This document shows positions 3,164 to 51,595 of a DNA stretch of 64,000 bases, piece after piece. Within the stretch, counting starts at the first letter, position 1. Each line of letters opens with the position of its first letter. The translations under genes and the position numbers were made by a program. This DNA is from an uncultured Eubacteriales bacterium. GTDB lineage: Bacteria; Bacillota_I; Bacilli_A; RFN20; UBA1709. The stretch spans positions 5,831-69,830 of the forward strand of contig CAYIYR010000001.1 in the NCBI GenBank assembly GCA_964367815.1. Direction: 5' to 3'. Below the pieces are notes generated by a model. That model saw only the letters and a list, made by a program, of their open reading frames with translations. It ran no database searches and was not told the DNA's origin.

Positions 3164-3169
3164 TATGAT

Positions 3170-3395
3170 TAAATCGTTGATTGAGAGTAGTAATCTTCTT
3201 TCTCTTTCTAGAGATCTGCTGGCTGGTGCAAAGCAGAAAAGAGAAGTCGATGAATCCACTCAAGAGAGAAATAGTATACTATTTCCGGTAGAAACCGTTA
3301 TCACAAAAGAGACAATGTTTCACGTGAAACATTGTAAGAAGGGTGGCACCGCGGGAAACCGTCCCTTTGCGGAGGCACTTTTTTTATTGTTTAGG
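3170..3395 (+). promoter_or_regulatory. T-box riboswitch leader (seryl specifier UCC) controlling serS
   Basis: Stem I has GA/K-turn-like strands (TTGAGAGTAG ... CTCAAGAGAG). A candidate specifier loop AAUCCAC has UCC at 3254-3256 followed by the conserved purine. A perfect palindrome hairpin at 3313-3334 sits in the Stem III position. The canonical T-box sequence AAGGGTGGCACCGCG is at 3340-3355. An overlapping terminator hairpin plus T7 run (3352-3386) ends just before the serS RBS. Confidence 0.8.
3316..3331. promoter_or_regulatory. perfect parS consensus site (TGTTTCACGTGAAACA)
   Basis: This is an exact 16/16 match to the Firmicute Spo0J/ParB-binding parS palindrome. It lies inside the serS leader, where it forms T-box Stem III. 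Confidence 0.6.
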
Positions 3396-3406: not shown

Positions 3407-4699
3407 ATGATAGACATTAAACTTTTGAGAGACAATCCAGACGTCGTAAAGGAAAACATTAAGAAAAAATTCCAAGATAGTAAATTACCACTAGTTGATG
3501 AGGTGATTGAACTAGATAAAAAACTACGGCAAATCAAGGTAGAAATAGATGATTTGCGTAGCGAACGTAACCGCGTCAGCAAATCAATCGGGGCGTTAAT
3601 GGGCCAAAAAAAGAGTGAAGAAGCTAACGCCAGCAAACAAAGAGTTGTTGACATTAACAACGCTTTAATCAAGCTTGAAGAGGACGCTGAAAGAATTGAG
3701 AATAGGGTAAGAGAGATCATGCTAGTTATTCCTAATATCATTGATCCAACCGTTCCTGTGGGAAAAGACGATTCAGAGAACGTGGAAATCGAAAGGTTCC
3801 TTGAACCTAAAGTTCCTGACTACGCTATCCCCTATCACCTTGATATCATCGAAAGAGTTGGCGGCATAGATTTAGATAGCGCAAGAAGAGTTGCTGGTAA
3901 TGGCTTTTATTATTTAATGGGTGATATCGCTAGACTTCACTCTGCGGTTTTAAGTTATGCTAGAGATTTCATGATTGATAAAGGTTTTACTTATGTTATC
4001 CCACCATACATGATTAGAAGCGATGTTGTAACCGGAGTTATGAGTTTTGCGGAAATGGATGCGATGATGTATAAAATTGAAGGCGAAGATCTTTATTTAA
4101 TCGGCACTAGCGAACACTCCATGATTGGCAAGTTTATCGGTCAACTATTGAACAAAGAAGATTTACCTTACACCTATACCAGTTATTCTCCTTGTTTTAG
4201 AAAAGAAAAAGGCGCTCACGGAATAGAAGAAAGAGGAGTATATCGGATTCATCAATTTGAAAAGCAAGAAATGATAATTGTGTGTGAACCAGAAGATTCA
4301 AAAGCTTGGTTTGAAAAACTATATCACTTCACTGTTGAATTATTTACTAGCATGAAGATTCCAGTAAGAACTTTAGAATGTTGCAGTGGTGATCTAGCAG
4401 ATTTGAAAGTTAAAAGCATTGATGTCGAAGCCTGGAGTCCACGGCAGCAGAAGTATTTTGAGGTTGGCAGTTGCTCCAATCTCGGCGATGCTCAAGCCAG
4501 AAGACTCGGAATTAGAATCAAAGATGAGAACAAAAACTATTTTGCCCACACCTTGAATAATACCGTTGTTGCGCCACCAAGAATGTTGATTGCAATCTTA
4601 GAAAATCATCTTAACGCCGATGGATCAATTAATATCCCAGAAGTTCTCCAGCCATACATGGGTGGAAAGAAAAAAATCGACGTTGTAACCAAGAAATAA
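3407..4699 (+). CDS. serS: seryl-tRNA synthetase
   Basis: The 430-aa product has an N-terminal coiled-coil tRNA-binding arm (MIDIKLLRDNPDVV...) and class II aaRS core motifs. RBS AGGAGGAAAAAAGC precedes the ATG. Confidence 0.95.
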   Translation: MIDIKLLRDNPDVVKENIKKKFQDSKLPLVDEVIELDKKLRQIKVEIDDLRSERNRVSKSIGALMGQKKSEEANASKQRVVDINNALIKLEEDAERIENRVREIMLVIPNIIDPTVPVGKDDSENVEIERFLEPKVPDYAIPYHLDIIERVGGIDLDSARRVAGNGFYYLMGDIARLHSAVLSYARDFMIDKGFTYVIPPYMIRSDVVTGVMSFAEMDAMMYKIEGEDLYLIGTSEHSMIGKFIGQLLNKEDLPYTYTSYSPCFRKEKGAHGIEERGVYRIHQFEKQEMIIVCEPEDSKAWFEKLYHFTVELFTSMKIPVRTLECCSGDLADLKVKSIDVEAWSPRQQKYFEVGSCSNLGDAQARRLGIRIKDENKNYFAHTLNNTVVAPPRMLIAILENHLNADGSINIPEVLQPYMGGKKKIDVVTKK

Positions 4700-34150: not shown

Positions 34151-34744
34151 ATGAAAGACCCAAAACTAAGTGAGTTCATTGAACAATTAAGTAGTGATAG
34201 TCCTACTCCAGGCGGTGGCGCAGCAGCGGCATATGCAACGGCGATGGCACTTTCTTTAGCGTTGATGAGCATCAATGTCTCGAAAAAGCGCAAGAAATTT
34301 CTTGCTTTACCACAGCAGGAACAGGATCGAGTTTCTAAAGTGATTTGTTGGTTAAATGACCTTCAAAAAGAATGTTTCAAGATACAAGAAAGTGATGAAA
34401 AAGCCTTTGAAGGCTATATGAAGATATATAAGAGTGATAAAAAAGAAGAAATTGAGAAGGCCGCATTTCTTTGCTATAACATTCCCTTTAAATTATTGGA
34501 ATTGAATTTTAAAGCGATAGAGATGATTTTGTTTCTAAAACAATACATTGTGTCTAGTATTATTAGCGATTATAAAATGGCATTGGAGATGTGCTGTTCA
34601 AACATCAGATGCTGCATTATAAATATGACAATTAATATTAAGAATATAACTGACAAAGACATTATCGATGAGTATAACAATTCAAAGCTGATTGCAGAAA
34701 ATGCCATTAAACGAATTGTTAATTTGCAAGGAGAGATCGAATGA
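34151..34744 (+). CDS. fchA: methenyltetrahydrofolate cyclohydrolase (cyclodeaminase/cyclohydrolase family, FTCD C-domain-like)
   Basis: The product has the [18 protein letters not shown] motif. It leads the fhs-folD operon. RBS AAGAAGGTG precedes the ATG at 34151. Confidence 0.8.
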
Positions 34745-36405
34745 AAACTGATATAGAGATTGCTCAAGAGCATAGAAAATTACCGATAATTGAAATCGCG
34801 AATAATCTTAGTATACCAGAAGATTATTTGGAGTTTTATGGTAAATATAAAGCAAAAATTAACCTTGATTATATGGAAAAGCTTTTAACGCACAAGGATG
34901 CAAAGCTTGTTTTGGTTACCGCCATTACACCAACCAAAGCCGGCGAAGGTAAAACAACAACAACCATTGGTATTGGCGATGCTCTAAAAAAGATTGGTGC
35001 CAAACCGGTTATCTGTTTAAGAGAACCATCAATGGGGCCAGTATTTGGCATTAAAGGCGGAGCCGCAGGCGGTGGTTATTCACAGGTGGTGCCTATGGAA
35101 GATATCAATTTACATTTTACTGGCGATATGCATGCCATAACTAGTGCAAACAACTTAATTTCGGCTTGTCTTGATAATTCAATCTTTCAAGGCAATGAGC
35201 TAAACATTAATCCCGGACGTGTTGTTTGGAAGCGTTGTTTAGATATGAACGATAGAGCTTTGCGACAAGTAGAAGTTGGTATGGGTAAGAACAATGGCAT
35301 AGAAAGAAAAGATGGATTTGTTATTACGGTTGCCACCGAAGTGATGGCTATTATGTGTTTAGCTAAAGATCTTGAAGACTTTAAAGATAAAATTGGTCGT
35401 TGTATTGTTGCCTACACCTATGATGAACAAGCGGTTACTGTTAAGGACTTAGGTGTAGTGGGATCTGTTGCCTTATTAATGAAAGATGCCTTAAAGCCAA
35501 ATCTTGTTCAAACATTAGGAGGAACGCCAGTTCTTATGCATGGTGGACCATTTGCAAACATTGCCCATGGATGTAATTCATTAATTGCAACTAAAATGGG
35601 ATTGAAACTTGGAGATATAGTTGTTACCGAAGCTGGATTCGGTGCTGATTTGGGCGCCGAGAAGTTTTTTGATATTAAGTGTAGAACCGGTTTTCTAAAA
35701 CCAAATTGTGTTGTAATAGTCGCTACAATTCGTGCTTTAAAGATGCATGGTGGTGAAGACAAAAACAACTTAAGTGAAGAGAATGTTGATGCATTAATAG
35801 CGGGTTTTCCAAATCTTAAAAAACACATCGAGAATGTTCAACAATTTGGTCTGCCCTATGTTGTAGCAATCAACAAATTTCCGAGCGACACCGACAAAGA
35901 AGTGGAAACTTTATTGAATTTGTGTAAGCAGGGTAACCATCCGGTTTGTTTAAACGATGTTTATGCAAAGGGTGGAGATGGAGCAATAGAGATTGCTAAA
36001 AAGATTGTTGATTTGGTTGATAATAATAATTCGCTTAAGTATATCTACGAGTTAAATGAACCAATTAAAGATAAGATTAGTAAGATATGCACTAAGATAT
36101 ATGGTGCTAAAGATGTTGTCTATTTAGATTCTGCTGAGGAAACGCTGCATGTAATTGAAAAGAATGGATATCAGAACGGTTTTATTTGCATGGCCAAAAC
36201 ACCCAATTCATTGTCAGATAACGATAAGCTGATTGGTAGACCAAAAGATTTTACTATTACTGTAAAAGAAATAAGATTGTCCGCTGGCGCTAATTTTATT
36301 GTAGTGCTAACTGGAGCTGTTATGACAATGCCTGGTTTATCAAAGACACCGGCAGCCACCAAGATTGATATCTTGAAAAATGGCGAGATTGTGGGGTTGT
36401 TCTAA
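34741..36405 (+). CDS. fhs: formate--tetrahydrofolate ligase
   Basis: The product has [19 protein letters not shown] and [15 protein letters not shown] signature motifs. It overlaps fchA by 4 nt. Confidence 0.95.
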
Positions 36406-37235
36406 TGATTTTAGATGGTAAAAAAGTAGTTGAAGCTAGAAAGACTGAGCTAATAAAACAAGTAGAGGAATTTAAGAGCCAGGGTTTGATGCCAAGACTC
36501 GCTATTCTTCAACCAAATTCAGACCAAGCTTCTCTTTCCTATTTGAGAAGTCGGATTAAACTTGGCAAAGAACTAGGTATTGAAGTGTCTTCACTTGATT
36601 TCGAACAAAGCATTAGTAAAGAAACATTATTAAAAATGATAGAGCCATTGAATATCAATGATGGGTTTTGGGGAATAATGGTTGATAAACCGTTACCTAC
36701 ATATATGAACGCTGATGAGATTGATAATTCAATCGATCCATCAAAGGACATTGACGGGTGCACTTTTCTCAATGCGGGTAAACTAAGTCAAGGCAAACAG
36801 TGTTTGGTCCCGTCAACCGCCCAAGCTGTGGTTGACTTATTGAAATTCTATGATATTTCTTTGGTTGGTAAAAAGGTAACAGTAGTGGGAAGAAGCAAAA
36901 CAGTAGGAGCTCCTGTTGCACAGTTATTGATTCAAGAAAATGCAACGGTTACTGTCTGTCATTCTAAGACTCTCAATTTAAAAGACGAGTGTAAGAATGC
37001 GGATATATTGATAGTTGCCATGGGAAAGAAAAAGTTTATTACAAGCGAATATGTATCGGAAAAATCGGTGATTATTGATGTTGGAATACATGAGGACAAT
37101 GGAAAAATCTGTGGGGATGTCGATGTCAGCGCATTACAGAAATGTGCGAGTTATTCGCCGGTTCCTGGCGGAGTTGGTCCTTTGACAACCCTCGAGTTAT
37201 TTGTTAATCTTCTTAAGACTAGGATGGTGAGATAA
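36405..37235 (+). CDS. folD: bifunctional methylenetetrahydrofolate dehydrogenase/methenyl-THF cyclohydrolase
   Basis: MILDGKKV...PVPGGVGPLT is typical of FolD. It overlaps the fhs stop by 1 nt. Confidence 0.95.
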   Translation: MILDGKKVVEARKTELIKQVEEFKSQGLMPRLAILQPNSDQASLSYLRSRIKLGKELGIEVSSLDFEQSISKETLLKMIEPLNINDGFWGIMVDKPLPTYMNADEIDNSIDPSKDIDGCTFLNAGKLSQGKQCLVPSTAQAVVDLLKFYDISLVGKKVTVVGRSKTVGAPVAQLLIQENATVTVCHSKTLNLKDECKNADILIVAMGKKKFITSEYVSEKSVIIDVGIHEDNGKICGDVDVSALQKCASYSPVPGGVGPLTTLELFVNLLKTRMVR

Positions 37236-39985: not shown

Positions 39986-40030
39986 TAATGTGGTTGGTGA
40001 AAACCATTTTTTATCAAAGGAGGGGTTTTG

Positions 40031-42130
40031 ATGCCCATGATTATGGCAGGATTCTTTATGGAATTTACTGCAATTATTCTCGTCACAATAGTTGGCGTAT
40101 TAGGTGTTCTTTACACATTCTATTTGAAGAGTAAAATCAACAAAGAAAAAGTTGAAGATCCTAAGATGGCTGAAATTCAGTCATACATTAAAGAGGGAGC
40201 GATGGCATTCCTAAAACGCGAATATAAAACACTAGCAATTTTTGCTGCTGTTCTATTTATCGCCATTGGTTTTGGAATTTCATGGTGGACCGCAATCTGT
40301 TTCCTCTGTGGAGCAGGTCTATCTGGACTAGCAGGATTCTTAGGCATGAGAGCTGCGACAAGCGCTAATGCTAAAACAGCTGCTGCTGCCCAAAAATACG
40401 GCATGAGCAAGGCACTACAAGTTGCTTTCTCAGGCGGTTCTATTATGGGCCTATGCGTTGTTGGCTTAGGCTTAGGTGGATTAAGTTTAGTCTTTGTTAT
40501 TTTTGAATCAGCTATTGGAAATGTTTCCCAAGTCGCTGATATTATTACTGGTTTCGGCTTAGGCGCTTCTTCAATCGCTTTATTCAGCCGTGTCGGTGGT
40601 GGTATTTATACTAAGGCCGCTGATGTTGGTGCTGACTTAGTTGGTAAAGTAGAAGCCGGAATTCCTGAAGATGACCCACGTAACCCAGCCGTTATCGCTG
40701 ATAACGTTGGTGATAACGTTGGCGATGTCGCTGGTATGGGAGCCGATTTATTTGAGTCTTATGTTGGTGCAATTATTTCTGCAGTTTCATTGGGAGCCTT
40801 TATGACTGGTCTCCAAACTCAAAGTGTAATTTATCCAATGTTCTTATCTGGAATTGGTATTATTGCTGCGATTCTTGGCGGTCTATTTGTCAAGGGTGAC
40901 AAAAATCCTGCCAAAGCTTTAAAGAAAGGAACCTATGCTGCTTCTGCTATTGTTGTTGTTGCAGCGTTAGTCCTAAGTATTCTTTATTTCAATAACGATT
41001 GGTATAAAACCTTCTTCTCAGTTGTTATCGGCCTAGTAGTTGGAGTTATTATCGGTAGCATTACAGAGATCTTTACATCAGGCGATTATAAATTTGTTAA
41101 GAAGATTGCTGGACAGTCCGAAACTGGACCAGCCACAAACATTATCTCTGGTTTATCAACTGGTATGATGTCAACTTGTATTCCTGTCATTTTAATTAGC
41201 GTTGCTATTTTGGTGGCTTATTATGTTAGTGGTGGTAGTACCAATCCAACCTCAGGCGTTTATGGTATTGCTTTAGCTGCTGTTGGTATGCTATCAACAA
41301 CCGGTATTACTGTTGCTGTTGATGCTTATGGCCCAGTTGCTGACAATGCTGGCGGTATTGCTGAAATGGCTGGATTAGATGAGAGTGTTAGAGATATTAC
41401 TGACCAATTAGATGCAGTTGGAAATACAACTGCTGCTATGGGCAAGGGCTTTGCAATTGGTAGTGCTGCTTTAACTGCTTTAGCTTTATTTGTTACATTT
41501 ATCTTTAGTTTTAACGCCAAAACTGCTGTTGATATTACTACCCAATTAAATTTGGCATCACCTTCTGTAGTTGTTGGCTTATTAATTGGTGGTATGTTAC
41601 CATTCCTCTTCTCAGCCTTGACAATGGCAAGTGTTGGAAAAGCCGCTTTTGAAATGATTGAAGAAGTCAGATCACAATTTAAGAATGATGCTGGTATTAT
41701 GGCTGGAACAAGCAAACCAAATTATTCTAGATGTGTTGATATCTCAACCAAAGCCGCTCTAAAAGAAATGATTGTTCCTGGTGTCCTAGCTATTGTTGCT
41801 CCAATCGTTATTGGTGTCTTACTTGGATATCAAGGCTTAGCTGGTCTATTAGCTGGATCTTTAGTCACTGGTGTTTTGATGGCAATCTTTATGTCCAACG
41901 CCGGTGGTGCTTGGGATAATGCTAAGAAACTAATCGAATCAACTGGAAGAAAAGGAACTGAAGTTCATAAAGCTGCCGTTGTTGGTGATACTGTTGGTGA
42001 TCCATTCAAGGATACCTCCGGTCCATCTATCAACATTCTAATTAAGCTAATGACTATTGTTGCTGTTGTCTTCATTCCATTATTCTGTGCCATCTGTGGT
42101 GGTATGGGATTAATCGGATTTATTCAGTAA
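40031..42130 (+). CDS. hppA: membrane-bound Na+/K+-stimulated pyrophosphate-energized pump (V-type PPase)
   Basis: The product has about 16 TM helices and signature motifs ([57 protein letters not shown]). RBS GGAGGGG precedes the ATG at 40031. Confidence 0.9.
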
Positions 42131-42178: not shown

Positions 42179-42604
42179 TTAGGCACTTTTTTTACTTTTC
42201 ATAACTGTTCTATTTTTTATTTTGTCTAAGCATTGATAGAATATTTCTTTTTCTTCGGTTGTTAAGTCTTGTGTTGCTTCTTCCGCCCACTTGTCAAAGA
42301 CATTTATGACATCATGCATCATTTTCATTCCATCTTCGGTTAAGGACAAAAGATTCTCTCGCCGGTTATTTGTATTCACAGTTCTTACTAATAAGCCTTG
42401 CTTTTCTAATTTACTAATCATTTTAGCAACAGTGGCTTTATCAATCGAATAAGCCCTGGAAATCTTATCTTGATTTGTGTTTTCGTGTAGATAAATAAAG
42501 GCGCAGACATTATGCTCAATTGAAGTTAAACCTAAATCTTTAAGCTCAACATAGGCATTGTTTTGACAAAATTTTGCGATTGCAACGAGATCTTGGATAA
42601 GCAT
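42179..42604 (-). CDS. MarR-family transcriptional regulator (paralog 1)
   Basis: The product has a winged HTH (DKATVAKMISKLEKQGLLVRTVNTNNRRENLLSLTEDG). It shares the MLIQDL N-terminus with paralog 2. Confidence 0.8.
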   Translation of the reverse strand: MLIQDLVAIAKFCQNNAYVELKDLGLTSIEHNVCAFIYLHENTNQDKISRAYSIDKATVAKMISKLEKQGLLVRTVNTNNRRENLLSLTEDGMKMMHDVINVFDKWAEEATQDLTTEEKEIFYQCLDKIKNRTVMKSKKSA

Positions 42605-42727: not shown

Positions 42728-42810
42728 TTGATAAAATCAACAGTTGGTTATTGACAACTATTTTTCTAAAGAGTATATTGAAATTGTCAACAGTTGAGAA
42801 AATCAACAAT
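42728..42810. promoter_or_regulatory. cluster of palindromic candidate MarR operator sites in the divergent promoter region
   Basis: The perfect palindrome TTGATAAAATCAA is at 42728-42740. AGTTGGTTATTGACAACT is an inverted repeat. TCAACAGTTGA is a palindrome. TTGAGAAAATCAA is a near-palindrome just before the marR2 RBS. Confidence 0.4.
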
Positions 42811-42823
42811 AATGAGGTAAAAT

Positions 42824-43231
42824 ATGCTAATACAAGATTTGATTGTTATCGCCAAAAGTGCGCAACGAGCAGCAAATGAGAAGGTAAAGAGCCTTGGTTT
42901 TACTACGCGCGAAAATACAATATGTAATTATTTATATTTACACCAAGAAGCGAGCCAAGATAAAATTGCTAAAACATTGCTAATTGATAAAGCCACTGTC
43001 GCAAAGATTTTAAAGAAATTAGAAGATCAAAAGATAATTGAACGAAAAGTCAATCCAAACAATCGTAGACAAAATATCATTACTCTTTCCGATGGCGGTT
43101 CGGCCGTAATTAAAGAAATGATTGGATTTTATGATGCTTGGACTGATTTTGTTATGGATGAATTAAGTGAAGAAGAAAAAGCGCAGTTCTACTCCTATTT
43201 GAAAAAAATTAAGCATAAAGCGATGTCATAG
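42824..43231 (+). CDS. MarR-family transcriptional regulator (paralog 2), first gene of the operon
   Basis: The winged HTH is DKATVAKILKKLEDQKIIERKVNPNNRRQNIITLSDGG. It is about 40-45% identical to paralog 1 by eye. Confidence 0.8.
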   Translation: MLIQDLIVIAKSAQRAANEKVKSLGFTTRENTICNYLYLHQEASQDKIAKTLLIDKATVAKILKKLEDQKIIERKVNPNNRRQNIITLSDGGSAVIKEMIGFYDAWTDFVMDELSEEEKAQFYSYLKKIKHKAMS

Positions 43232-43264
43232 GCATCCATTAAAAATAATAGAAAGGGTGATGGT

Positions 43265-43978
43265 ATGGAGAGTTTAATCGTCTTTAGCGAAGTAAATGTC
43301 AGTTGGGGAATGGCATTGGTAGATTTTATCCCTGTAGTTTTTTTCTCGGCAGGTATGGGTTATTTATTAAAAATGACTTATCGCAAGCTAAATCCATTTT
43401 GGTATTCACTGCTTAGTGGTGGGGCATTCCTAGGGTTTTTCGCGGGCTTATCAAAGTGTACGTGGAAATTGTTGTATGCAGCGGGTTTTGATTTTGCACC
43501 ATTTAATGTTTCATTTGCTGTCTATCAAACCGTTGGCTTCCTATTAATTGCTATTGCCTTAATTGCGGTTGTCGTATTCGATAAGAAAACGACCGCTATG
43601 CCGAAAGTAAAGAGCATTGAATTGCCAGTATCGATTCTTGCTTTATTACCGCTAGTGTTAGCAACAGTAAGATCAGTTACTAAACCAGGATTCCTTTGGT
43701 ATATTTGCATGGGAATTTTCACAAGTGTTTATCTCGTTTGTATGGCAATCTTGACCATCAGAAGAAAGATGGTTAAAGAGACAATATCTTTAGTAATTTC
43801 GTTTGTTTGCATGTGGACCATGGCTGGATTGAAATCTCAATTTGAATCTGGCGGGACCTTTGAGAGAATGAATTGGATTGCTCAGATTGTCAATAGTATT
43901 ACTCAACTTGCAATGGCGTATCCTGCTTTTATGCTTTGTAAAAAAGAAATACTAGTCAATAAAGCAGTAGAACAATAA
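43265..43978 (+). CDS. hypothetical polytopic membrane protein (237 aa)
   Basis: The product has 6-7 TM helices and no motif I recognise. Confidence 0.5.
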   Translation: MESLIVFSEVNVSWGMALVDFIPVVFFSAGMGYLLKMTYRKLNPFWYSLLSGGAFLGFFAGLSKCTWKLLYAAGFDFAPFNVSFAVYQTVGFLLIAIALIAVVVFDKKTTAMPKVKSIELPVSILALLPLVLATVRSVTKPGFLWYICMGIFTSVYLVCMAILTIRRKMVKETISLVISFVCMWTMAGLKSQFESGGTFERMNWIAQIVNSITQLAMAYPAFMLCKKEILVNKAVEQ

Positions 43979-44002
43979 TAACCACAAAGAGGAGGAGATA
44001 AA

Positions 44003-45082
44003 ATGAGTGGAATTGTCGCATATGGTGTCAAGATTCCTTTTAGAAGAATAGAATCAGCGACCATATTAGAAGTTTGGCGTAATGTTTCCGAAGAAATATT
44101 AACCAAATTAAACCTTAAGGAACGGGCTGTTACGGGTCCAGATGAAGACCCTATTACCTTAGGTGCCAACGCAGCCAATAGTTGTTTAAAACAAAGCAAC
44201 TTAAAATTAGATCAAGTAGATGGATTAATCTTTGCTAGTCAAACCAATCCTTATGCAACCAAATCAAGCGCTACGGTTTTACAAGATATCTTGGGTTTAA
44301 AGCACGATATCTTTACCACCGATGTTCAACAGGCTTCACGCAGTGGATTCGATGCGATTTTCATCGCTAAAAATCTAGTCGATAGTGGTAGATGCAAGAA
44401 TGTTTTAGTTATCGCCAGTGATTGTCTGAATCAATTCATTTCACCGGGTCATGTTTATGAATATGCCGGTAGTGCCGGTGCCGTAGCCTTAATCATCAGC
44501 AGAGAAAATGTTATCGCTGAAATTAACGATATGCAATTTGCATCAGAAGATCGCGCCAACTGGTATCGTTTAAATACCGAAAGATATATTCAACTGGGCT
44601 GTGGCTTTGTTGGCTATATCAGTAGCTGGGGATTAATGGAATCTGTTAAAGATAGTTGGACTAAATATAAAGAAGTTAATGGCGTAACTGCCGATGATTT
44701 CATGCACTTTGCCTTACCACAAGGTAATGTTGTTCAATCATTTATGACGACCGGAGTATTGAACTGCGATGTCTACCAAGCATTACCATACGTTATCAGT
44801 GAATCAGTTGGTGATTTAGGCTGTGGATTAGTGCTTGCATCAATGTGTAACATTTTTGATCTCATTGATGAGGGTGGACAAACCATCTGTGCTGTTGGCT
44901 ATGGTTGGGGTGATGGGTCCTGTATTATGGGCCTAACAACTACTGATTTAATCGGACAAGTTGCTGATAAACCAGTAGTTATGACACAGATAGAGAAGAA
45001 AGAATACATCAGTTACGGCAAAGCCGTGAAATATGAAAAGAAATTAGACCGCAATATGAAGGGTCTATCCAGTTATTATTAG
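44003..45082 (+). CDS. archaeal-type HMG-CoA synthase-like / KAS III-like condensing-enzyme family protein
   Basis: GIVAYGVKIPFRRIESATILEVW...PDEDPITLGANAA...NPYATKSSATV parallels the archaeal HMGCS N-terminus (GIVGYG..IP.YRI...DEDT.T.A.EAA). The His of FMHFALPQGN is conserved. RBS GAGGAGGAG lies upstream. Confidence 0.75.
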   Translation: MSGIVAYGVKIPFRRIESATILEVWRNVSEEILTKLNLKERAVTGPDEDPITLGANAANSCLKQSNLKLDQVDGLIFASQTNPYATKSSATVLQDILGLKHDIFTTDVQQASRSGFDAIFIAKNLVDSGRCKNVLVIASDCLNQFISPGHVYEYAGSAGAVALIISRENVIAEINDMQFASEDRANWYRLNTERYIQLGCGFVGYISSWGLMESVKDSWTKYKEVNGVTADDFMHFALPQGNVVQSFMTTGVLNCDVYQALPYVISESVGDLGCGLVLASMCNIFDLIDEGGQTICAVGYGWGDGSCIMGLTTTDLIGQVADKPVVMTQIEKKEYISYGKAVKYEKKLDRNMKGLSSYY

Positions 45083-45094
45083 GAGGCAAAGAAA

Positions 45095-46300
45095 ATGGAT
45101 AAAAAAATTAGAAAAGTCGTTGTTTATTCCTTTGCAATCACTGATAGAGGATATCCTTACGCGACTCCCTGGAGAAAAATCGTTGTTGATGCTTTTACAA
45201 AAGCTTTAGATCAAACAACATTAAAAGTTGAAGATATTCAATGTGGATCTGTTGGATATAACGAAAGAGGCGTTAGTGAAGCGGCCCTTGGTACGCAAGT
45301 TGCTGATGCTCTAGGTCTACCATTGTCTTGTAGTATGACTCCAGTCTCCCATGCTTGTGCAGGTGGTGGTATGGCGTTATACAATGTTTGGAATTATATT
45401 GCTTCTGGCATGTATGATGTTGGGCTAGTAATGAGTTTCCAAGTCGGTGATAGCTTCGACAACATGGAAGCTATGAACCCCATCGGTAATCACTCTGATT
45501 ATGACTATACTTTCGGATTTTCACATGTAGAATACAGTTTCTTAAGAGATAAATGGTATCGTGAAAAATATGGCTATGATGTAATTCCCGCGGCTACTTG
45601 GGCGCAAGTCTGTCATGAATATGCTAGAAAAGTTCCTGGTAGTGTTGAATATGGAAAAGATATGCCAGTTTGGGAAGATCTAGCTGCTGAAACCGCCGAA
45701 GGCGAAAGAGCAAGAAGTGCTGCTGCTAGAGGTGCTACAGCCACAGCAACCATTCTTGTTTCTGAAGAGAAAGCAAAAGAATTGGGTATCAAAGATCCAG
45801 TTACTTGCTATGTTGCTTATGCTTTCAGACCTCCATATATTGGAAATCATATGTTCTATGAAGGCTGTCCTGGTTACGAGAATTATGACTTAGCAAATCA
45901 ACCGGGTATGATTAATGCCGCGCAACAAGTTTATAAGATTGCTGGCATTACCCCAAAGGATATTGATGTTGCTGAAGTTCATGATCTCAGCGGTTGGGAA
46001 GGCATCTACTCCCTAGAGGGATTAGGAATCTGTGAAATCGGTGAAGGTGGAAAATTTGTTGCCGAAGGAAATACAAGAGTCGGTGGAAAATGTCCAACTT
46101 GTACCCATGGTGGTGGAATTGCTTATGGACATACTTCTGTCGGTAGTGATTTCCAGATTAACTTCTTTGAAGCCTGCCTCCAATTACAAGGCAAAGCTGA
46201 AGGAAGACAAGTTGAAGGAGCAAAGATTGGTGTTGCCCAAGCTTATGGAACCCATCACTCCTATGATGTCGTATCAGTATTGAAGAAGGGAGAGATTTAG
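45095..46300 (+). CDS. thiolase (SCP-x/archaeal-type acetyl-CoA C-acetyltransferase-like)
   Basis: The product has a thiolase fold with the nucleophile Cys in SHACAGGG and the C-terminal GGGIAYGHTSVGSD segment. Confidence 0.8.
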   Translation: MDKKIRKVVVYSFAITDRGYPYATPWRKIVVDAFTKALDQTTLKVEDIQCGSVGYNERGVSEAALGTQVADALGLPLSCSMTPVSHACAGGGMALYNVWNYIASGMYDVGLVMSFQVGDSFDNMEAMNPIGNHSDYDYTFGFSHVEYSFLRDKWYREKYGYDVIPAATWAQVCHEYARKVPGSVEYGKDMPVWEDLAAETAEGERARSAAARGATATATILVSEEKAKELGIKDPVTCYVAYAFRPPYIGNHMFYEGCPGYENYDLANQPGMINAAQQVYKIAGITPKDIDVAEVHDLSGWEGIYSLEGLGICEIGEGGKFVAEGNTRVGGKCPTCTHGGGIAYGHTSVGSDFQINFFEACLQLQGKAEGRQVEGAKIGVAQAYGTHHSYDVVSVLKKGEI

Positions 46301-46302
46301 TT

Positions 46303-46737
46303 ATGGCTGACAATTTATTTGGCTCAATCGCAAGAGTAGAAACTCATAATACCGTAAGAGCGTATAAAGAAAAAGATGGACGTTTCCGGATTATTGGTTC
46401 TAAGTGTCCAGATTGTGGATCAATTTGGTATCCAAGAAGATTTATTTGTCCAAAATGTCACGGTCGTAATCTTCAACCATATGAGTGTGCACAAGAAGGC
46501 GAAGTAGTAACTTCTTGGGTCGATATGATTGGTTTCCCAGTAATTGGCTTTGAAGATATTGATGATCGCTGTGTTGCAATGATCAAATTGGATGATGGCA
46601 TCCATGTCATGGGCGAGATTATCGATGTTAGAAAAGAAGTTCCAAATGGGACAAGAGTAAAAGCTGTTATTAGACAATTAAAAAGAGACGATACTGGTAA
46701 CCTAATGTATGGTTATAAATTCGAAGTCGTTGAGTAG
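46303..46737 (+). CDS. DUF35 zinc-ribbon/OB-fold protein (thiolase-HMGCS scaffold subunit type)
   Basis: A rubredoxin-like zinc ribbon (CPDCGSIWYPRRFICPKCHG) is followed by an OB-fold. It starts 2 nt after the thiolase stop. Confidence 0.8.
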   Translation: MADNLFGSIARVETHNTVRAYKEKDGRFRIIGSKCPDCGSIWYPRRFICPKCHGRNLQPYECAQEGEVVTSWVDMIGFPVIGFEDIDDRCVAMIKLDDGIHVMGEIIDVRKEVPNGTRVKAVIRQLKRDDTGNLMYGYKFEVVE

Positions 46738-46781
46738 AACTCGAATTTACAATATAGAAATAATTAAAGGAGGACATTATT

Positions 46782-47126
46782 ATGTCAAAAATTAGTGAAG
46801 TTATTTACAATCTACCAAATTTATTCGTTAAAGAAAAAGCCAAGGGATGGGACAGATGCTTAGTATTCGAGTTAACTGGAGAAGAAGCCAGCAAATACAC
46901 TGCAATTATTAAAGGTCAAGTTCTAACAATTCATGATGGCGAACCAACAGAAGAAGAAAACGCAATGAAGAAATTAGTTGTCTTTGGTGACAGCCAATAT
47001 GTTGTTCAAATGTTCACCGGTGAAGTTCCACCAATGAAATTAGTCAACGCCAAATTAATCCAAATGAAGGGTGGACTAATCGATTCTATGTCCTTCAGCC
47101 GTATTTGGAATATTCCCAAGAAATAA
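46782..47126 (+). CDS. SCP2 (sterol carrier protein 2-like) lipid-binding domain protein
   Basis: The 114-aa product has SCP2-fold length and pattern (LVFELTG...KLVVFGDSQYVVQMFTGEVPPMKL...KLIQMKGG). Confidence 0.65.
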   Translation: MSKISEVIYNLPNLFVKEKAKGWDRCLVFELTGEEASKYTAIIKGQVLTIHDGEPTEEENAMKKLVVFGDSQYVVQMFTGEVPPMKLVNAKLIQMKGGLIDSMSFSRIWNIPKK

Positions 47127-47168
47127 GGTACATTTTACGTTTATTACTAACTAAAAGGAGGTTAGCAA

Positions 47169-48218
47169 ATGTTAAAATATCGTGAGGAACAAAATCATCG
47201 TTGGGCCCATAATCTAAAAGCAGCCCGTGAATATTTTAATTCCGATTTAGAAAAATTCTATAACGGAGATATTCCTGCAGAGTTCCCCTATCCAGGCATC
47301 AAAATCTTGGGTGCCTTCTGGGTAGCCGAAAACATGGAGATGCAAGAAAGACTAGCTATTCACAAAGATGTTCTTGATTTAAAAGAACACTATAAAGAAT
47401 ATGAAGTGTTTTCAGAAGAGTTCTATCGTTGGTTTGTGGAAGACTTTGTTGAAATGTCTAATCGTTTTGACATTTATTCTAAAGAGGACTTAGACCAATT
47501 AGTCAGAATATCTCAACAAGAAGTCAAGATTCCTGAAGATTGGCAAGAACAAATTGAAAGTTTAGAAGCCAGATCAGAAGAAATGCTTTCCAGTAAGCAA
47601 AAAGATGATGAACTACTAAGAGATTGGTTCTTCTATTGTGGAAGATTTATTCTCTCATATGCTCAGAACTTGATCAGACAAGGAGTTATTACTGCCTTGT
47701 TTGTAAAATACTTCGGCGTTGATGCTTTGAAGAAAGCAATTGAACCGACCATTGATTACTTTGGTTGGAACATTAATAGAGTTTTCTTTAATGTTGCGAT
47801 GCCAGCCACTGGTTTCCAAGACCTAGGTGACATTGTTGCCTTAGGGGCTTATGGAATGTTGGCCGACCAAGCAGTTAGTCCAAGTAGTGAAGAAGTCAAA
47901 GATGGAGTCACCTACAAACGTAGTTATTTAGATACTTGCCAATTATATGGCTTTATCGACTCGGTAGCTGATTTCCTAAATCAACCTAAGGGTTGTACTT
48001 CTGATGCTTATTGTCGCTTCTGCGTTGGCCATGGTGAGAAAACAATGCACTTTGTTATTCCACCAGATAGAACAGTCGATTATTCATTAGAGACTGGTCT
48101 CGGCTACGGTGGTAAAAGATGTACATTCTTATTAAAGACCGTTGAGGGTGAAGATGATGAGAGATGTGCAAATGCTGAAGCCAAAATATTTGGCGATGAA
48201 GAATTAACTTATAAATAA
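47169..48218 (+). CDS. hypothetical protein with C-terminal Cys motifs ([16 protein letters not shown] ... GGKRCTFLL ... ERCANAE)
   Basis: I recognise no family for this 349-aa soluble protein. RBS AAAGGAGG lies upstream. Confidence 0.5.
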
Positions 48219-48232
48219 AGGAGAACACAATT

Positions 48233-48988
48233 ATGAGATTTCAAGATAGAGTTGTAATTGTTACTGGTAGCGCCTATGGAATTGGCAGAGCCACCGCTTT
48301 AGCGTTTGCTAAAGAAGGTGCAAAACTAGTTATCACTGATTACAATGCCGAAAAGTTAGAGCAGACAGGTAAATTATTAGAAGAATTAGGCACTGAGTAT
48401 ATTTCAAGAGCCTTTGATATTCGTGATGGCGAGAAAATTGATGAAATGATGAGTGCTGCCATGGAAAAATGGGGACACATCGATGTTATGGTTAACAACG
48501 CTGGTGTTGGTCAATTCAATCCTTTCCCAACCACCTCAATTGATGAATGGGATACAATTATGGGAATCAACGCTAAAGCCGTTTATATGTGCTGCCGTGC
48601 AGTAGTTCCTTACATGATGGATGCTGGAAAGGGTGCTATTGTTAACATCACCAGTATCATGGGTGAATTTGCTGCCATTGCTCAATCTATTTATAACACC
48701 TCCAAGGGTGCTGCCAAGATGCTAACACAAGCTATAGCCAAAGATTTAGGTGAAACAGGTATTAGATGTAATGCTGTTGCTCCAGGAATGGTTCAAACAG
48801 GTTTAACTGAAAACATGTTTGCTGATGATGGTCAGAGACAATGGTTTGAGGAAAGAATTCCATTAGGAAGAGTCGCCCAACCAGATGAACTAGCCAAAGC
48901 AGTATTATTCCTCGCTAGCGATGATGCCAGTTATATTACCGGTGCAACTTTAAGAGTTGATGGTGGTATGACCTGCGCTATGAACTAA
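48233..48988 (+). CDS. SDR-family oxidoreductase (3-oxoacyl reductase FabG-like)
   Basis: The product has [13 protein letters not shown] (NAD(P) binding), NNAG, and the catalytic YNTSK. Confidence 0.85.
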
Positions 48989-48989
48989 C

Positions 48990-49796
48990 ATGAAGAAAGA
49001 AAAGAAATCAAAAAAAGTTTTAACACCTGAAGAAAAAGCTGCTAAAAAAGCAAAAATGAAGGAAACCGCTTGGCTCGGATTTAAAGATGGTATTATTCCA
49101 TTCTTTATTCAGATGGGAATCCTGGTAGTTGTCATTCTAGAATTCGTTTTTGTCATTGCTAACAAGAACATCCCCAATGTTTCTAATGTTGCGGATCGAA
49201 TTGTTGGTGGCGAAGTAATTAATGATCCTAACATACTACGCCTAATTTATATGATTCTATGTGTGCCAGCTGTTATCGGATTGCTATGGTGGTCTTCCAA
49301 AGTTGAAAGTAAAACCAAACAATTCTGGATTTCACTTGTTGCAGGAATTGTTGCTTGGCAGTGTATAGGTGAATGTAGTTTCCATTTTGGACTCTATGTC
49401 AATGGCACTTTTGAGTTCTTCCCCCAAATTGAAGGACCACAAGGCCTATTCCTACTTGTCTTTATTAGTCCAGTTCTGTTCTATGCCAATAAGAAGAAAG
49501 CATTCCCTTGGTTTGTTCAAATCTTCTTACTGTCATTTATGTGTAACTGGTTAGGACACTTTGTTATTGAAGGTATTGCCCCAATGTGGCCAACCACATT
49601 GCGTTATCATAATCCAGCAAAATGGCCAAAAATTGTAGGTATCCTAGCTGGTCTCCATGGTAGCTTAATGCTTTTATACAAAATTATCTTCAAAGCCAAA
49701 ACCAAAGAAGAAAGACTCGTTTTATCACTATTACTTTATACGTTTGTTGGAGTATTAGTAGAGGGTGTCTTTGGCGTTGGCGGGTCGTTAGGATAA
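48990..49796 (+). CDS. hypothetical membrane protein (268 aa)
   Basis: A Lys-rich N-terminus is followed by about 7 TM helices. It starts 1 nt after the SDR stop. Confidence 0.5.
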   Translation: MKKEKKSKKVLTPEEKAAKKAKMKETAWLGFKDGIIPFFIQMGILVVVILEFVFVIANKNIPNVSNVADRIVGGEVINDPNILRLIYMILCVPAVIGLLWWSSKVESKTKQFWISLVAGIVAWQCIGECSFHFGLYVNGTFEFFPQIEGPQGLFLLVFISPVLFYANKKKAFPWFVQIFLLSFMCNWLGHFVIEGIAPMWPTTLRYHNPAKWPKIVGILAGLHGSLMLLYKIIFKAKTKEERLVLSLLLYTFVGVLVEGVFGVGGSLG

Positions 49797-49827: not shown

Positions 49828-50547
49828 ATGAAAAAACACACAAAACTTAAAATAACTCTAATAGTTATCTTAACGGTAGTTCTAGCAATTGTAGTTGGCG
49901 GAACCATTTATGTCAAAGATTATTATCATAGTGATGAGAGCGTTGCAGCAATACTAAATAATGAGAATGTCCAAATCGAAAAAAATTATATTACTTTTGG
50001 TGATGAGAAAGCAGAGACAGGTATCATATTTTATCCTGGTGGTAAAGTAGAACATACTGCTTATGCACCACTGATGAATCAATTGGCAGACAAGGGATGT
50101 TTTGTTGTTCTAGTAAAGATGCCTTTTAACCTTGCCGTATTTGATATAGATGCCGCCGATGAAATTAGAGAGACCTTTGGCCAAAAGCAATGGTATATAG
50201 GTGGGCATTCGTTAGGCGGTGCAATGGCAAATAGCAACCTAGGAAAGCAACCCAAAAGTTATCAGGGACTAATATTACTTGGTGCTTATCTAACTGATGA
50301 TTTAAGCGCATATGACGGAATTGTTGTTTCCATTTATGGAAGTGAAGATCAAGTTTTAAACAAAGAAAAATATGATGAAGGACTTGAATATAAACCTTCA
50401 AAGTATTATGAATTAGTTCTTAGTGGCGGCAATCATTGTCAATTTGGAAACTATGGTTTTCAAAAAGGTGATGGAATAGCTTCTATCAGCGCATCTAATC
50501 AACAACAACAAACGAGTGATTTTATTTGGAGCAAAATAAGTACCTAA
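49828..50547 (+). CDS. alpha/beta hydrolase with N-terminal membrane anchor
   Basis: A TM helix is followed by the nucleophile elbow GHSLGG. Confidence 0.7.
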   Translation: MKKHTKLKITLIVILTVVLAIVVGGTIYVKDYYHSDESVAAILNNENVQIEKNYITFGDEKAETGIIFYPGGKVEHTAYAPLMNQLADKGCFVVLVKMPFNLAVFDIDAADEIRETFGQKQWYIGGHSLGGAMANSNLGKQPKSYQGLILLGAYLTDDLSAYDGIVVSIYGSEDQVLNKEKYDEGLEYKPSKYYELVLSGGNHCQFGNYGFQKGDGIASISASNQQQQTSDFIWSKIST

Positions 50548-51560: not shown

Positions 51561-51595
51561 AAAAGATTGGATTTATACTCCAATCTTTTTTGTTA
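51561..51595. terminator. bidirectional rho-independent terminator
   Basis: Hairpin AAAAGATTGGA-TTTATAC-TCCAATCTTTTTT. Confidence 0.65.

Follow-up and report, generated by a model that had tools for sequence, protein, structure and literature searches.

An open reading frame (ORF) at positions 44003..45082 (+ strand) of a 64,000-nucleotide stretch of contig CAYIYR010000001.1, from an uncultured Eubacteriales bacterium (hereafter "the window"), encodes a protein resembling archaeal 3-hydroxy-3-methylglutaryl-CoA synthase (HMGCS, or HMGS), which an initial annotation had singled out for an apparent Ser in place of the nucleophilic Cys. We think, with a probability of about 80%, that this protein is the inert HMGS-like subunit (A) in a PhlACB/MucABC-type thiolase complex of three components, where it is accompanied by an SCP2-type thiolase (subunit C) and a DUF35 protein (subunit B). 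This assignment follows from its homology to PhlA and MucA combined with the loss of the HMGCS catalytic tetrad. A non-catalytic partner of the Cys-bearing thiolase was one of two roles that the initial annotation had envisaged, and it is the one which, by analogy with homologues whose loss of catalytic residues has been described (PMC6392133; PMC12960953), we would retain. The central features are as follows.

44003..45082, + strand: subunit A, HMG-CoA-synthase-like, PhlA/MucA-type, tetrad replaced (Q80/S112/P239/D271) (sequence matches, AlphaFold2 (AF2) model, alignments)
44336..44338, + strand: codon TCA for Ser112, at the column of the nucleophilic Cys of HMGCS (translation, MAFFT)
45095..46300, + strand: subunit C, SCP2-type thiolase-like, PhlC-like, 401 aa (PDB phmmer, residue table)
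46303..46737, + strand: subunit B, DUF35 (zinc ribbon + OB fold), PhlB/MucC-like, 144 aa (Pfam zf-ChsH2 and OB_ChsH2_C; PDB matches)

Subunit A and its catalytic columns

The ORF of subunit A was confirmed as real, with a product of 359 aa. As the initial annotation had proposed, the likeness to archaeal HMGCS spans the whole protein (NCBIfam PRK04262, E 1.4e-65), though the scores remain under the equivalog cut-offs (221.6 bits against 244 for PRK04262, 178.3 against 353.35 for TIGR00748). The sequence matches in PDB are CsPhlA (3.3e-55), PpPhlA (2.5e-50), MtHMGCS (1.1e-36) and MucA (1.2e-27). The AF2 model (pLDDT 85.4, pTM 0.87) has the HMGCS fold, superposing with TM scores of 0.90 on PhlA, 0.89-0.92 on MtHMGCS (6ESQ/6ET9 chain I) and 0.87-0.90 on MucA. 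An identical protein is encoded on an independent Logan assembly contig, so that the sequence cannot be put down to an assembly error.

The catalytic tetrad was mapped on a MAFFT alignment of the window protein, 14 further family members and the sequences of MtHMGCS (6ESQ_I), PpPhlA (5M3K_A), CsPhlA (9SKH_A) and MucA (9VBO_A), the last four being rebuilt from HMMER alignments with a numbering that reproduces the published E82, C114, H238 and N270 of MtHMGCS. All four residues of the Methanothermococcus thermolithotrophicus enzyme are replaced in the window protein (E82 by Q80, C114 by S112, H238 by P239 and N270 by D271). The comparison with archaeal HMGCS that the initial annotation had called for thus bears out its first observation: the segment in question (T-D-V-Q-Q-A-S-R-S-G-F-D-A) has no Cys, and Ser112 lies opposite C114 of MtHMGCS and G115 of PhlA, in agreement with the structure comparison that equated C83 and G115 of PhlA with the catalytic Glu and Cys (PMC6392133). 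The same cannot be said of the downstream His, which was thought to be retained, since the His238 column is occupied by Pro239 (Pro in 14 of 15 family members), and the His of the FMHFALPQGN motif is His235, located four residues upstream of that column and variable (H/F/Y/A among the 15).

The other columns are no more favourable to catalysis of the HMGCS type. In the 15 family members the Cys114 position is taken by S, A, H, H, H, H, G, A, A, S, S, G, G, G and T, and clusters of this operon type that are more distant have D, S, G or T there; the Glu82 column (Q80 in the window) contains E/Q/G/S/C, and the Asn270 column (D271) is Asp in all members, as in PhlA. The codon of Ser112, TCA, is two substitutions away from TGY, hence it is not the product of a single-base error. 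Rescue of the active site by a Cys located elsewhere in the protein, which the initial annotation had left open, was also considered and rejected: none is invariant among the 15 members, and the two that are best conserved, C61 and C282 (each in 13 of 15), belong to helices of the AF2 model, at positions that are aliphatic or Ser in PhlA and HMGCS. We consider it shown, as far as sequence can show it, that subunit A cannot perform HMGCS chemistry.

An exhaustive HMMER search over 1.84 billion representatives, from which the best 150 matches were aligned to give a set of 155 sequences, places this loss in a wider context. Cys is present at column 114 in 24 of the 155, always together with Glu82 and in 20 cases with the complete E-C-H-N tetrad, and the remaining 131 have L, T, G, A, S, E, P, H and others at this column (Ser in 10 of the 155). 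It follows that, in a very large HMGS-like set, absence of the nucleophile is the normal state and Ser is one incidental outcome of its loss; on the evidence of these columns, Ser112 is incidental and not catalytically meaningful. In one distant cluster (L006:5216-6298 in our numbering of loci), the tetrad of the HMGS-like protein reads C-T-H-N, with His and Asn kept and Glu and Cys lost, and this protein looks like an intermediate state of decay.

The thiolase, the DUF35 protein and the known complexes

The genes of the three subunits succeed each other in the order A-C-B, as in phlACB, with gaps of 12 nt (A to C) and 2 nt (C to B), a tight spacing consistent with co-translation. A 784-aa Logan protein (P0187), corresponding to window positions 44003..46300 and beyond, appears as an A-C "fusion". 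We rejected it as evidence of a complex, because the A and C genes both end in TAG and the fusion is a gene-calling artefact, made from the same DNA with both TAG stops read as Gln.

Subunit C matches in PDB (phmmer) PhlC (4.4e-45), the archaeal acetoacetyl-CoA thiolase (ACAT) 7YVY (2.6e-32), MucB (1.8e-29), the thiolase of 6ESQ (5.2e-24) and BbsB (1.9e-13). It does keep its Cys in SHACAGGG, as initially noted: this is the nucleophile Cys88 (codon 45356-45358), conserved together with Asp137, His144, His296 (in HDLS) and Gly345-His346, while position 116 is Gln (window numbering). The protein was aligned first with seven orthologues and next with about 30 members of its clade (40-78% identity), one of them from a Hodarchaeales metagenome-assembled genome (MAG), and C88, D137, H144, H298 and H347 are invariant in these ~30 sequences. 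The latter numbering, used in the comparison below, is that of PhlC, in which window His296 becomes 298 and window His346 becomes 347 (ATase, acyltransferase).

Cys88: invariant in the clade; present in PhlC/MucB; present in archaeal ACATs
Asp137 + His144 (ATase proton relay): invariant in the clade; present in PhlC/MucB; Glu / Phe in archaeal ACATs
HDxF His, position 298 (window His296 in HDLS): invariant in the clade; Tyr in PhlC/MucB; His in archaeal ACATs
GH, His347 (window His346): invariant in the clade; present in PhlC/MucB; present in archaeal ACATs
Position 116: Q/A/N/S in the clade; Glu / Asp in PhlC/MucB; Glu in archaeal ACATs
CxS motif: CxG/A in the clade; CxS in PhlC/MucB; CxS in archaeal ACATs

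The signature of subunit C is thus a mixed one, judging from these positions: it keeps the HDxF His that PhlC and MucB have lost, and it is devoid of the Glu116 of the ACATs and ATases. Two traits of the ATase-type thiolases are therefore lacking, the loss of this His (invariant here) and the retention of an acidic general base (Glu116 in PhlC, Asp115 in MucB, Gln116 here), and the PhlC residues His56, Tyr124 and Trp211 are not conserved either. Subunit A falls to 64-66, 46 and 36% identity with the window over a set of genomes in which C is still at 76-78, 57-61 and 46%; this faster divergence of A is consistent with a scaffold role.

Subunit B has a Cys4 zinc ribbon (C35/C38/C49/C52), and its PDB matches are MucC (1.2e-23), PhlB (2.4e-23) and archaeal DUF35 (5.1e-16). 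It aligns with PhlB from residue 8, indicating that the N-terminal tail is present and PhlB-like; in the PpATase dodecamer this tail lies buried, and the archaeal DUF35 protein has none (PMC6392133). The window trio consequently displays the features of the PhlA/MucA type: an HMGS fold without E-C-H-N (as this type is defined in PMC12960953), an adjoining Cys-bearing thiolase with a Cys4 DUF35 protein, and PhlA, PhlC and PhlB as nearest solved relatives.

What is known of these relatives is in favour of an inert A subunit. PhlA is devoid of the catalytic Cys and Glu, the substrate is contacted solely by PhlC residues, and the PhlC variants tested impair activity (PMC6392133). MucA and PhlA are both without E-C-H-N and the corresponding complexes, SmaATase and PpATase, form no HMG-CoA; the acetylated residues are Cys87 of MucB and Cys88 of PhlC, activity requires all three subunits, and HMG-CoA is no longer formed by the archaeal complex when its tetrad is mutated (PMC12960953).

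Among the characterised systems, PhlACB (PpATase of Pseudomonas protegens, PDB 5M3K/5MG5; CsATase, PDB 9SKH) has the same three proteins in the same order and is the best match in sequence and fold for window A and C, window B being about equally close to PhlB and MucC. Both systems have an HMGS-like subunit without the catalytic Cys and Glu, a thiolase-like subunit with Cys88, Asp137, His144 and His347, and a DUF35 subunit that combines a Cys4 zinc ribbon with an N-terminal tail. They differ in the remnants of the tetrad (Q-S-P-D in the window, C-G-Q-D in PhlA), in the thiolase (His instead of Tyr at 298, Gln instead of Glu at 116, CxG instead of CxS, besides the three PhlC residues mentioned above), in the accompanying genes (phlD, a type III polyketide synthase (PKS), in the PhlACB cluster; SCP2, a V4R-like protein and a short-chain dehydrogenase/reductase (SDR) in the window) and in their hosts, which for the window type are MAGs of Bacillota/Izemoplasmatales type, presumed anaerobic. 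MucABC (SmaATase of Streptococcus macacae, PDB 9VBO/9VBT, which acetylates reutericyclin A) is likewise a tripartite HMGS/ACAT/DUF35 complex with an inactive HMGS-like subunit; its hosts are Firmicutes, as in the window, and MucC is the best PDB match of subunit B. It is nevertheless less similar to the window in A (1.2e-27) and C (1.8e-29), the tetrad of MucA reads C-E-Q-Y, MucB is without the HDxF His that window C has, and the genes sit inside a cluster of non-ribosomal peptide synthetase (NRPS) and PKS type.

The archaeal HMGCS/acetoacetyl-CoA thiolase/DUF35 complex of M. thermolithotrophicus (6ESQ/6ET9) shares the fold of all three subunits (TM 0.89-0.92 for A) and its thiolase, like window C, keeps the HDxF His and the GH motif. 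However, its HMGCS has E82-C114-H238-N270 and makes HMG-CoA, whereas all four residues are replaced in window A; its thiolase has Glu116 and CxS without the Asp137/His144 pair, the opposite of window C; and its DUF35 protein is without the N-terminal tail present in window B. A further system is PfACAT/HMGS-DUF35 of Pseudomonas fluorescens, in which, as in the window, the HMGS has no tetrad and the thiolase keeps the Cys, the HDxF His and the GH motif. It has been described as an "evolutionary intermediate" that cleaves acetoacetyl-CoA and makes no HMG-CoA, without PKS or NRPS nearby, in a scheme where the tetrad is lost in step 1 and the HDxF His in step 2 (PMC12960953). To judge from its residues, the window complex has taken step 1 and not step 2, as in PfACAT/HMGS-DUF35, although in sequence it is nearer to PhlACB and has changes of its own. 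In the Pseudomonas fluorescens system, moreover, HMGS and DUF35 are fused (~470 aa; "TLYN"-type sequences), whereas they are separate proteins in the window, and no SCP2, V4R-like or SDR partner has been described for it.

The operon and its conserved partners

The three genes belong to a + strand operon whose other features, with those of its flanks, are listed below (related loci are cited by their L numbers).

42179..42604, - strand: MarR-family regulator, divergent paralogue of the next gene (Pfam MarR, E 1.6e-10)
42751..42779, + strand: promoter-like site TTGACA-17-TATATT, upstream of the MarR gene opening the operon (consensus scan, 11/12 matches; weak, such sites in the region being not above shuffled expectation)
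42824..43231, + strand: MarR-family regulator, first gene of the operon (Pfam MarR, E 2e-10)
43265..43978, + strand: memb1, a 237-aa membrane protein with no Pfam match, retained upstream of the complex genes (by tblastn, 42-47% identical in L001, L002, L003 and L008)
46782..47126, + strand: SCP2 (sterol-carrier-protein-2) domain protein, 114 aa (PF02036)
47169..48218, + strand: p349, orphan 349-aa protein (no Pfam or NCBIfam match; AF2 model, Foldseek)
48233..48988, + strand: classical SDR, FabG/BbsD-like (Pfam adh_short_C2, E 2.6e-72; PDB matches)
48990..49796, + strand: memb2, a 268-aa membrane protein that close relatives retain downstream (by tblastn, 49-58% identical in L002 and L008)
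49828..50547, + strand: alpha/beta hydrolase (Abhydrolase_5), in the cluster of some relatives (Pfam, E 2.3e-48)
51561..51589, + strand: terminator-like hairpin after the last + strand gene (consensus match only)

All the genes from 42824 to 49796 are separated by short gaps (1-44 nt), and each has a GGAG-type Shine-Dalgarno site, except at the 1-nt junction between the SDR and memb2. The alpha/beta hydrolase is 42% identical to a protein in the same position in L008 and is located elsewhere in L002.

The genes for A, C, B, the 114-aa protein, p349 and the SDR occur together in all close relatives (L001, L002, L004, L005, L008-L010), and the same six are present in a different order in L006. 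The module recurs in an abundant clade with ~44% thiolase identity (L011/L012), where p349 has a 347-aa counterpart (31.5% identity, E 3e-56) and memb1 is matched by a membrane protein of 205 aa (27.6% identity, E 4e-17, in the L011 cluster), and A-C-B plus SDR are kept in L013 (Hodarchaeales) and L014. These relatives include Bacillota MAGs, Symbiobacterium, Ca. Fermentithermobacillaceae and Ca. Izemoplasmatales; a scan of genome contigs retrieved only 6 related loci, and our literature search on this operon type found nothing beyond the papers cited here. In L013 (Candidatus Hodarchaeales MAG, JBQSKJ010000180.1, 6909..9863), the degenerate A-C-B trio of an Asgard MAG is of bacterial type, with Ser at the Cys column, the same thiolase signature and an adjoining SDR and PadR regulator; it could reflect horizontal transfer or a binning error. 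Between the DUF35 and SDR genes of the ~44% clade, L011:10399-11733 encodes a 444-aa protein with no confident Pfam match and a faint ferrochelatase match only.

The 114-aa protein is an SCP2 domain: all seven orthologues examined hit PF02036 (best E 6.3e-16), and a PDB profile search gives SCP2-type domains. The case of p349 is less simple: searches of Pfam, NCBIfam and PDB sequences gave nothing meaningful, and only 17 homologues were found among 5.8 billion clusters. Its AF2 model (pLDDT 93.5) comprises a helical N-terminal half and a V4R/Bet3-like C-terminal domain, for which Foldseek returned the phenol-sensor domains of PoxR/MopR (E 3e-3 to 1e-2, probability 1.0), then Bet3/TRAPPC3 and H-NOX, and no other fold; the C-terminal domain is thus, according to the model, a V4R/Bet3-type ligand-binding fold. 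The invariant residues C157, C257, C282, C285, H288 and C318 (AYCxFCVGHG) form a Cys/His cluster that recalls the structural Zn site of MopR (PMC9556785), and p349 may be a Zn-binding ligand carrier or acyl carrier.

The PDB matches of the SDR include FabG and BbsD, the latter among the best (4.7e-47). By the standard cofactor rule for this family, an Asp ending strand beta2 indicates NAD(H); the SDR has such an Asp (…VITD), conserved in 9 of 9 orthologues, and would thus be of the NAD(H) type. A DUF35- or SCP2-associated SCP2-type thiolase together with a classical NAD-dependent SDR that makes the beta-keto group is also found in BbsAB with BbsCD (anaerobic toluene pathway) and in SCPx with MFE-2 (peroxisomes). 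These systems differ from the window in that an HMGS-like subunit is missing, the similarity of BbsB to window C is remote (1.9e-13), and other beta-oxidation enzymes are encoded alongside in bbs and not in the window operon.

As to the surroundings of the operon, the two MarR paralogues (42179..42604, - strand, and 42824..43231, + strand) have near-identical N-termini (MLIQDLVAIAKF… / MLIQDLIVIAKS…) and diverge from either side of the operon promoter region, and TetR, PadR or HTH-cupin regulators take the place of MarR in related clusters. No riboswitch or other Rfam element was found near the operon. Further away, a T-box leader (3168..3369, 127 bits) precedes a 430-aa ORF (3407..4699) and indicates a bacterial host of Bacillota type. 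Formate-tetrahydrofolate ligase, FolD and a membrane H+-pyrophosphatase are encoded just upstream of the operon (34741..37235 and 40028..42130), consistent with an anaerobic fermentative or acetogenic lifestyle.

Weighing the explanations

The initial annotation had also put forward another role for the Ser, that of nucleophile in an acyltransferase comparable to DpsC. DpsC, the KAS III-like priming enzyme of daunorubicin synthesis, has Ser for Cys within a conserved Ser-His-Asp triad. Its thiolase-superfamily fold and the Ser at the nucleophile column are indeed shared with the window protein, in which S114-G115 and Asp271 (at the Asn column) are invariant and the pocket-lining motifs are conserved, and the cavity of PhlA is reported to be big enough for acetyl-CoA (PMC6392133). 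Nevertheless, we think it very unlikely that A is an active acyltransferase working alongside the thiolase through Ser112 (or the invariant Ser114): unlike the triad of DpsC, Ser112 gives way to A, H, G, T or D in orthologues of the same operon, its presumed His partner is Pro in nearly the whole family with only the variable His235 nearby, and the Glu column varies too. S114 and D271 are moreover present in PhlA, where the ligand complex shows substrate contacts with PhlC only and the PhlC variants tested impair activity (PMC6392133), and in PpATase and SmaATase acetyl-CoA gives no second activity besides CoA release (PMC12960953). A genuine HMG-CoA synthase of the mevalonate pathway, whose Cys would be missing through a sequencing or alignment artefact, could be argued for from the full-length similarity to archaeal HMGCS models and from the archaeal-type trio of HMGCS, thiolase and DUF35. 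We regard this as so improbable that it can practically be set aside, since the whole tetrad differs, both equivalog cut-offs are missed, TCA is two changes from a Cys codon in a protein found identical in an independent assembly, and the Cys is missing from the entire orthologue family; besides, the host is a bacterium with a T-box leader (3168..3369), no other mevalonate-pathway gene is present among the ORFs annotated at ~34.7-54.2 kb of the window, and the archaeal complex itself gives no HMG-CoA once its tetrad is mutated (PMC12960953).

Some observations do weigh against our preferred explanation and should be acknowledged. The degenerate pocket of subunit A is surrounded by polar residues that are invariant in the 15 members (N82, Y84, K87, D107, Q109, S114, G115 and D271), and the protein is under clear purifying selection, so that the pocket may bind, or even catalyse, something unrecognised. 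We know of no reported mutation of the PhlA Ser equivalent to the invariant S114. Concerning the thiolase, His for Tyr at 298, the lack of Glu116 and CxG/A for CxS mean that transferring a mechanism from the ATases or the ACATs is not safe. Finally, the operon is without CoA ligase/transferase, hydratase and acyl-CoA dehydrogenase, and a complete beta-oxidation-like route is not encoded locally.

With subunit A as an inert scaffold, the complex could work as follows. By analogy with the solved homologues, A would form no acyl-enzyme, and A and B would assemble with C into a dodecameric scaffold in which A provides one wall of a shared substrate chamber; the acyl group would be carried on Cys88 of C, aided by His346 (GH) and by the Asp137/His144 pair, which PhlC and MucB have as well. 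The retention of His296 and the constant presence of the SCP2, Zn/V4R-like and NAD(H)-type SDR genes lead us to propose that the SDR and the His-retaining thiolase act in sequence, converting an alcohol into a beta-keto or beta-dicarbonyl compound that is then cleaved at a C-C bond with transfer of the acyl group to Cys88, or, in the reverse direction, condensing and then reducing. We would expect a bulky, hydrophobic and perhaps phenolic substrate, handled by the SCP2 and V4R-like proteins. This logic resembles that of BbsCD with BbsAB, of MFE-2 with SCPx, or of the DUF35-mediated archaeal thiolase/reductase assembly (bioRxiv 10.1101/2024.07.05.601840); being drawn from gene context, such a sequential step appears to us possible rather than probable.

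A serious alternative, though we would again not bet on it, is that the complex is a C-acyltransferase or deacylase of Friedel-Crafts type, like PhlACB and MucABC, acting on a cyclic beta-dicarbonyl or phenolic acceptor instead of performing thiolase chemistry on a CoA ester (A would still be a scaffold). PhlACB gives the best scores for the three subunits, the ATase-specific Asp137/His144 of C are absent from archaeal ACATs, the N-terminal tail of B is of PhlB type, p349 looks like the phenol-binding domains of PoxR/MopR, and MarR, PadR or TetR regulators adjoin the clusters. The thiolase itself points the other way: HDxF His296 is kept, whereas it is Tyr in both characterised ATases and PfACAT needs it to carry out thiolysis (PMC12960953), the residue put forward as general base (Glu116 in PhlC, Asp115 in MucB) is Gln/Ala/Asn/Ser, and His56, Tyr124 and Trp211 of PhlC are not conserved. 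Furthermore, no PKS or NRPS able to make the acceptor was found near the operon or in the related clusters examined.

More speculatively, and with about the same reserve, the operon could represent a third functional class of HMGS/ACAT/DUF35 complexes, characterised by Cys88-Asp137-His144-His298 without Glu116, by an SCP2 carrier, a V4R/Bet3-like Zn protein and an NAD-dependent SDR as partners, and by a hydrophobic or phenolic substrate, with hosts among Bacillota, Izemoplasmatales and even one Asgard archaeon. In such a class p349 might serve as ligand carrier, or even as covalent acyl carrier, as Bet3 does for palmitate, and the reaction might be, for example, the energy-conserving thiolytic (retro-Friedel-Crafts-like) cleavage of an acylated phenol or of a cyclic beta-diketone.

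Whatever the reaction, the Ser-for-Cys change is not a pointer to new chemistry: the feature initially flagged is a known property of the PhlA/MucA-type protein class, the loss of HMGS catalysis in thiolase-complex scaffolds having been described in 2018 and 2026. The new part is modest and consists of the mixed thiolase signature and of the fixed partners of the complex (SCP2, the orphan Zn/V4R-like protein and the NAD-type SDR). The 2026 study counted about 1,000 bacterial HMGS/ACAT/DUF35 clusters without known function, and the present locus is a clean, conserved example of them, whose interest lies in the operon and not in the Ser. Characterising this operon could reveal a new C-C bond-forming or -cleaving reaction useful for biocatalysis, and could also show what an inert HMGS-like subunit contributes to such a complex.

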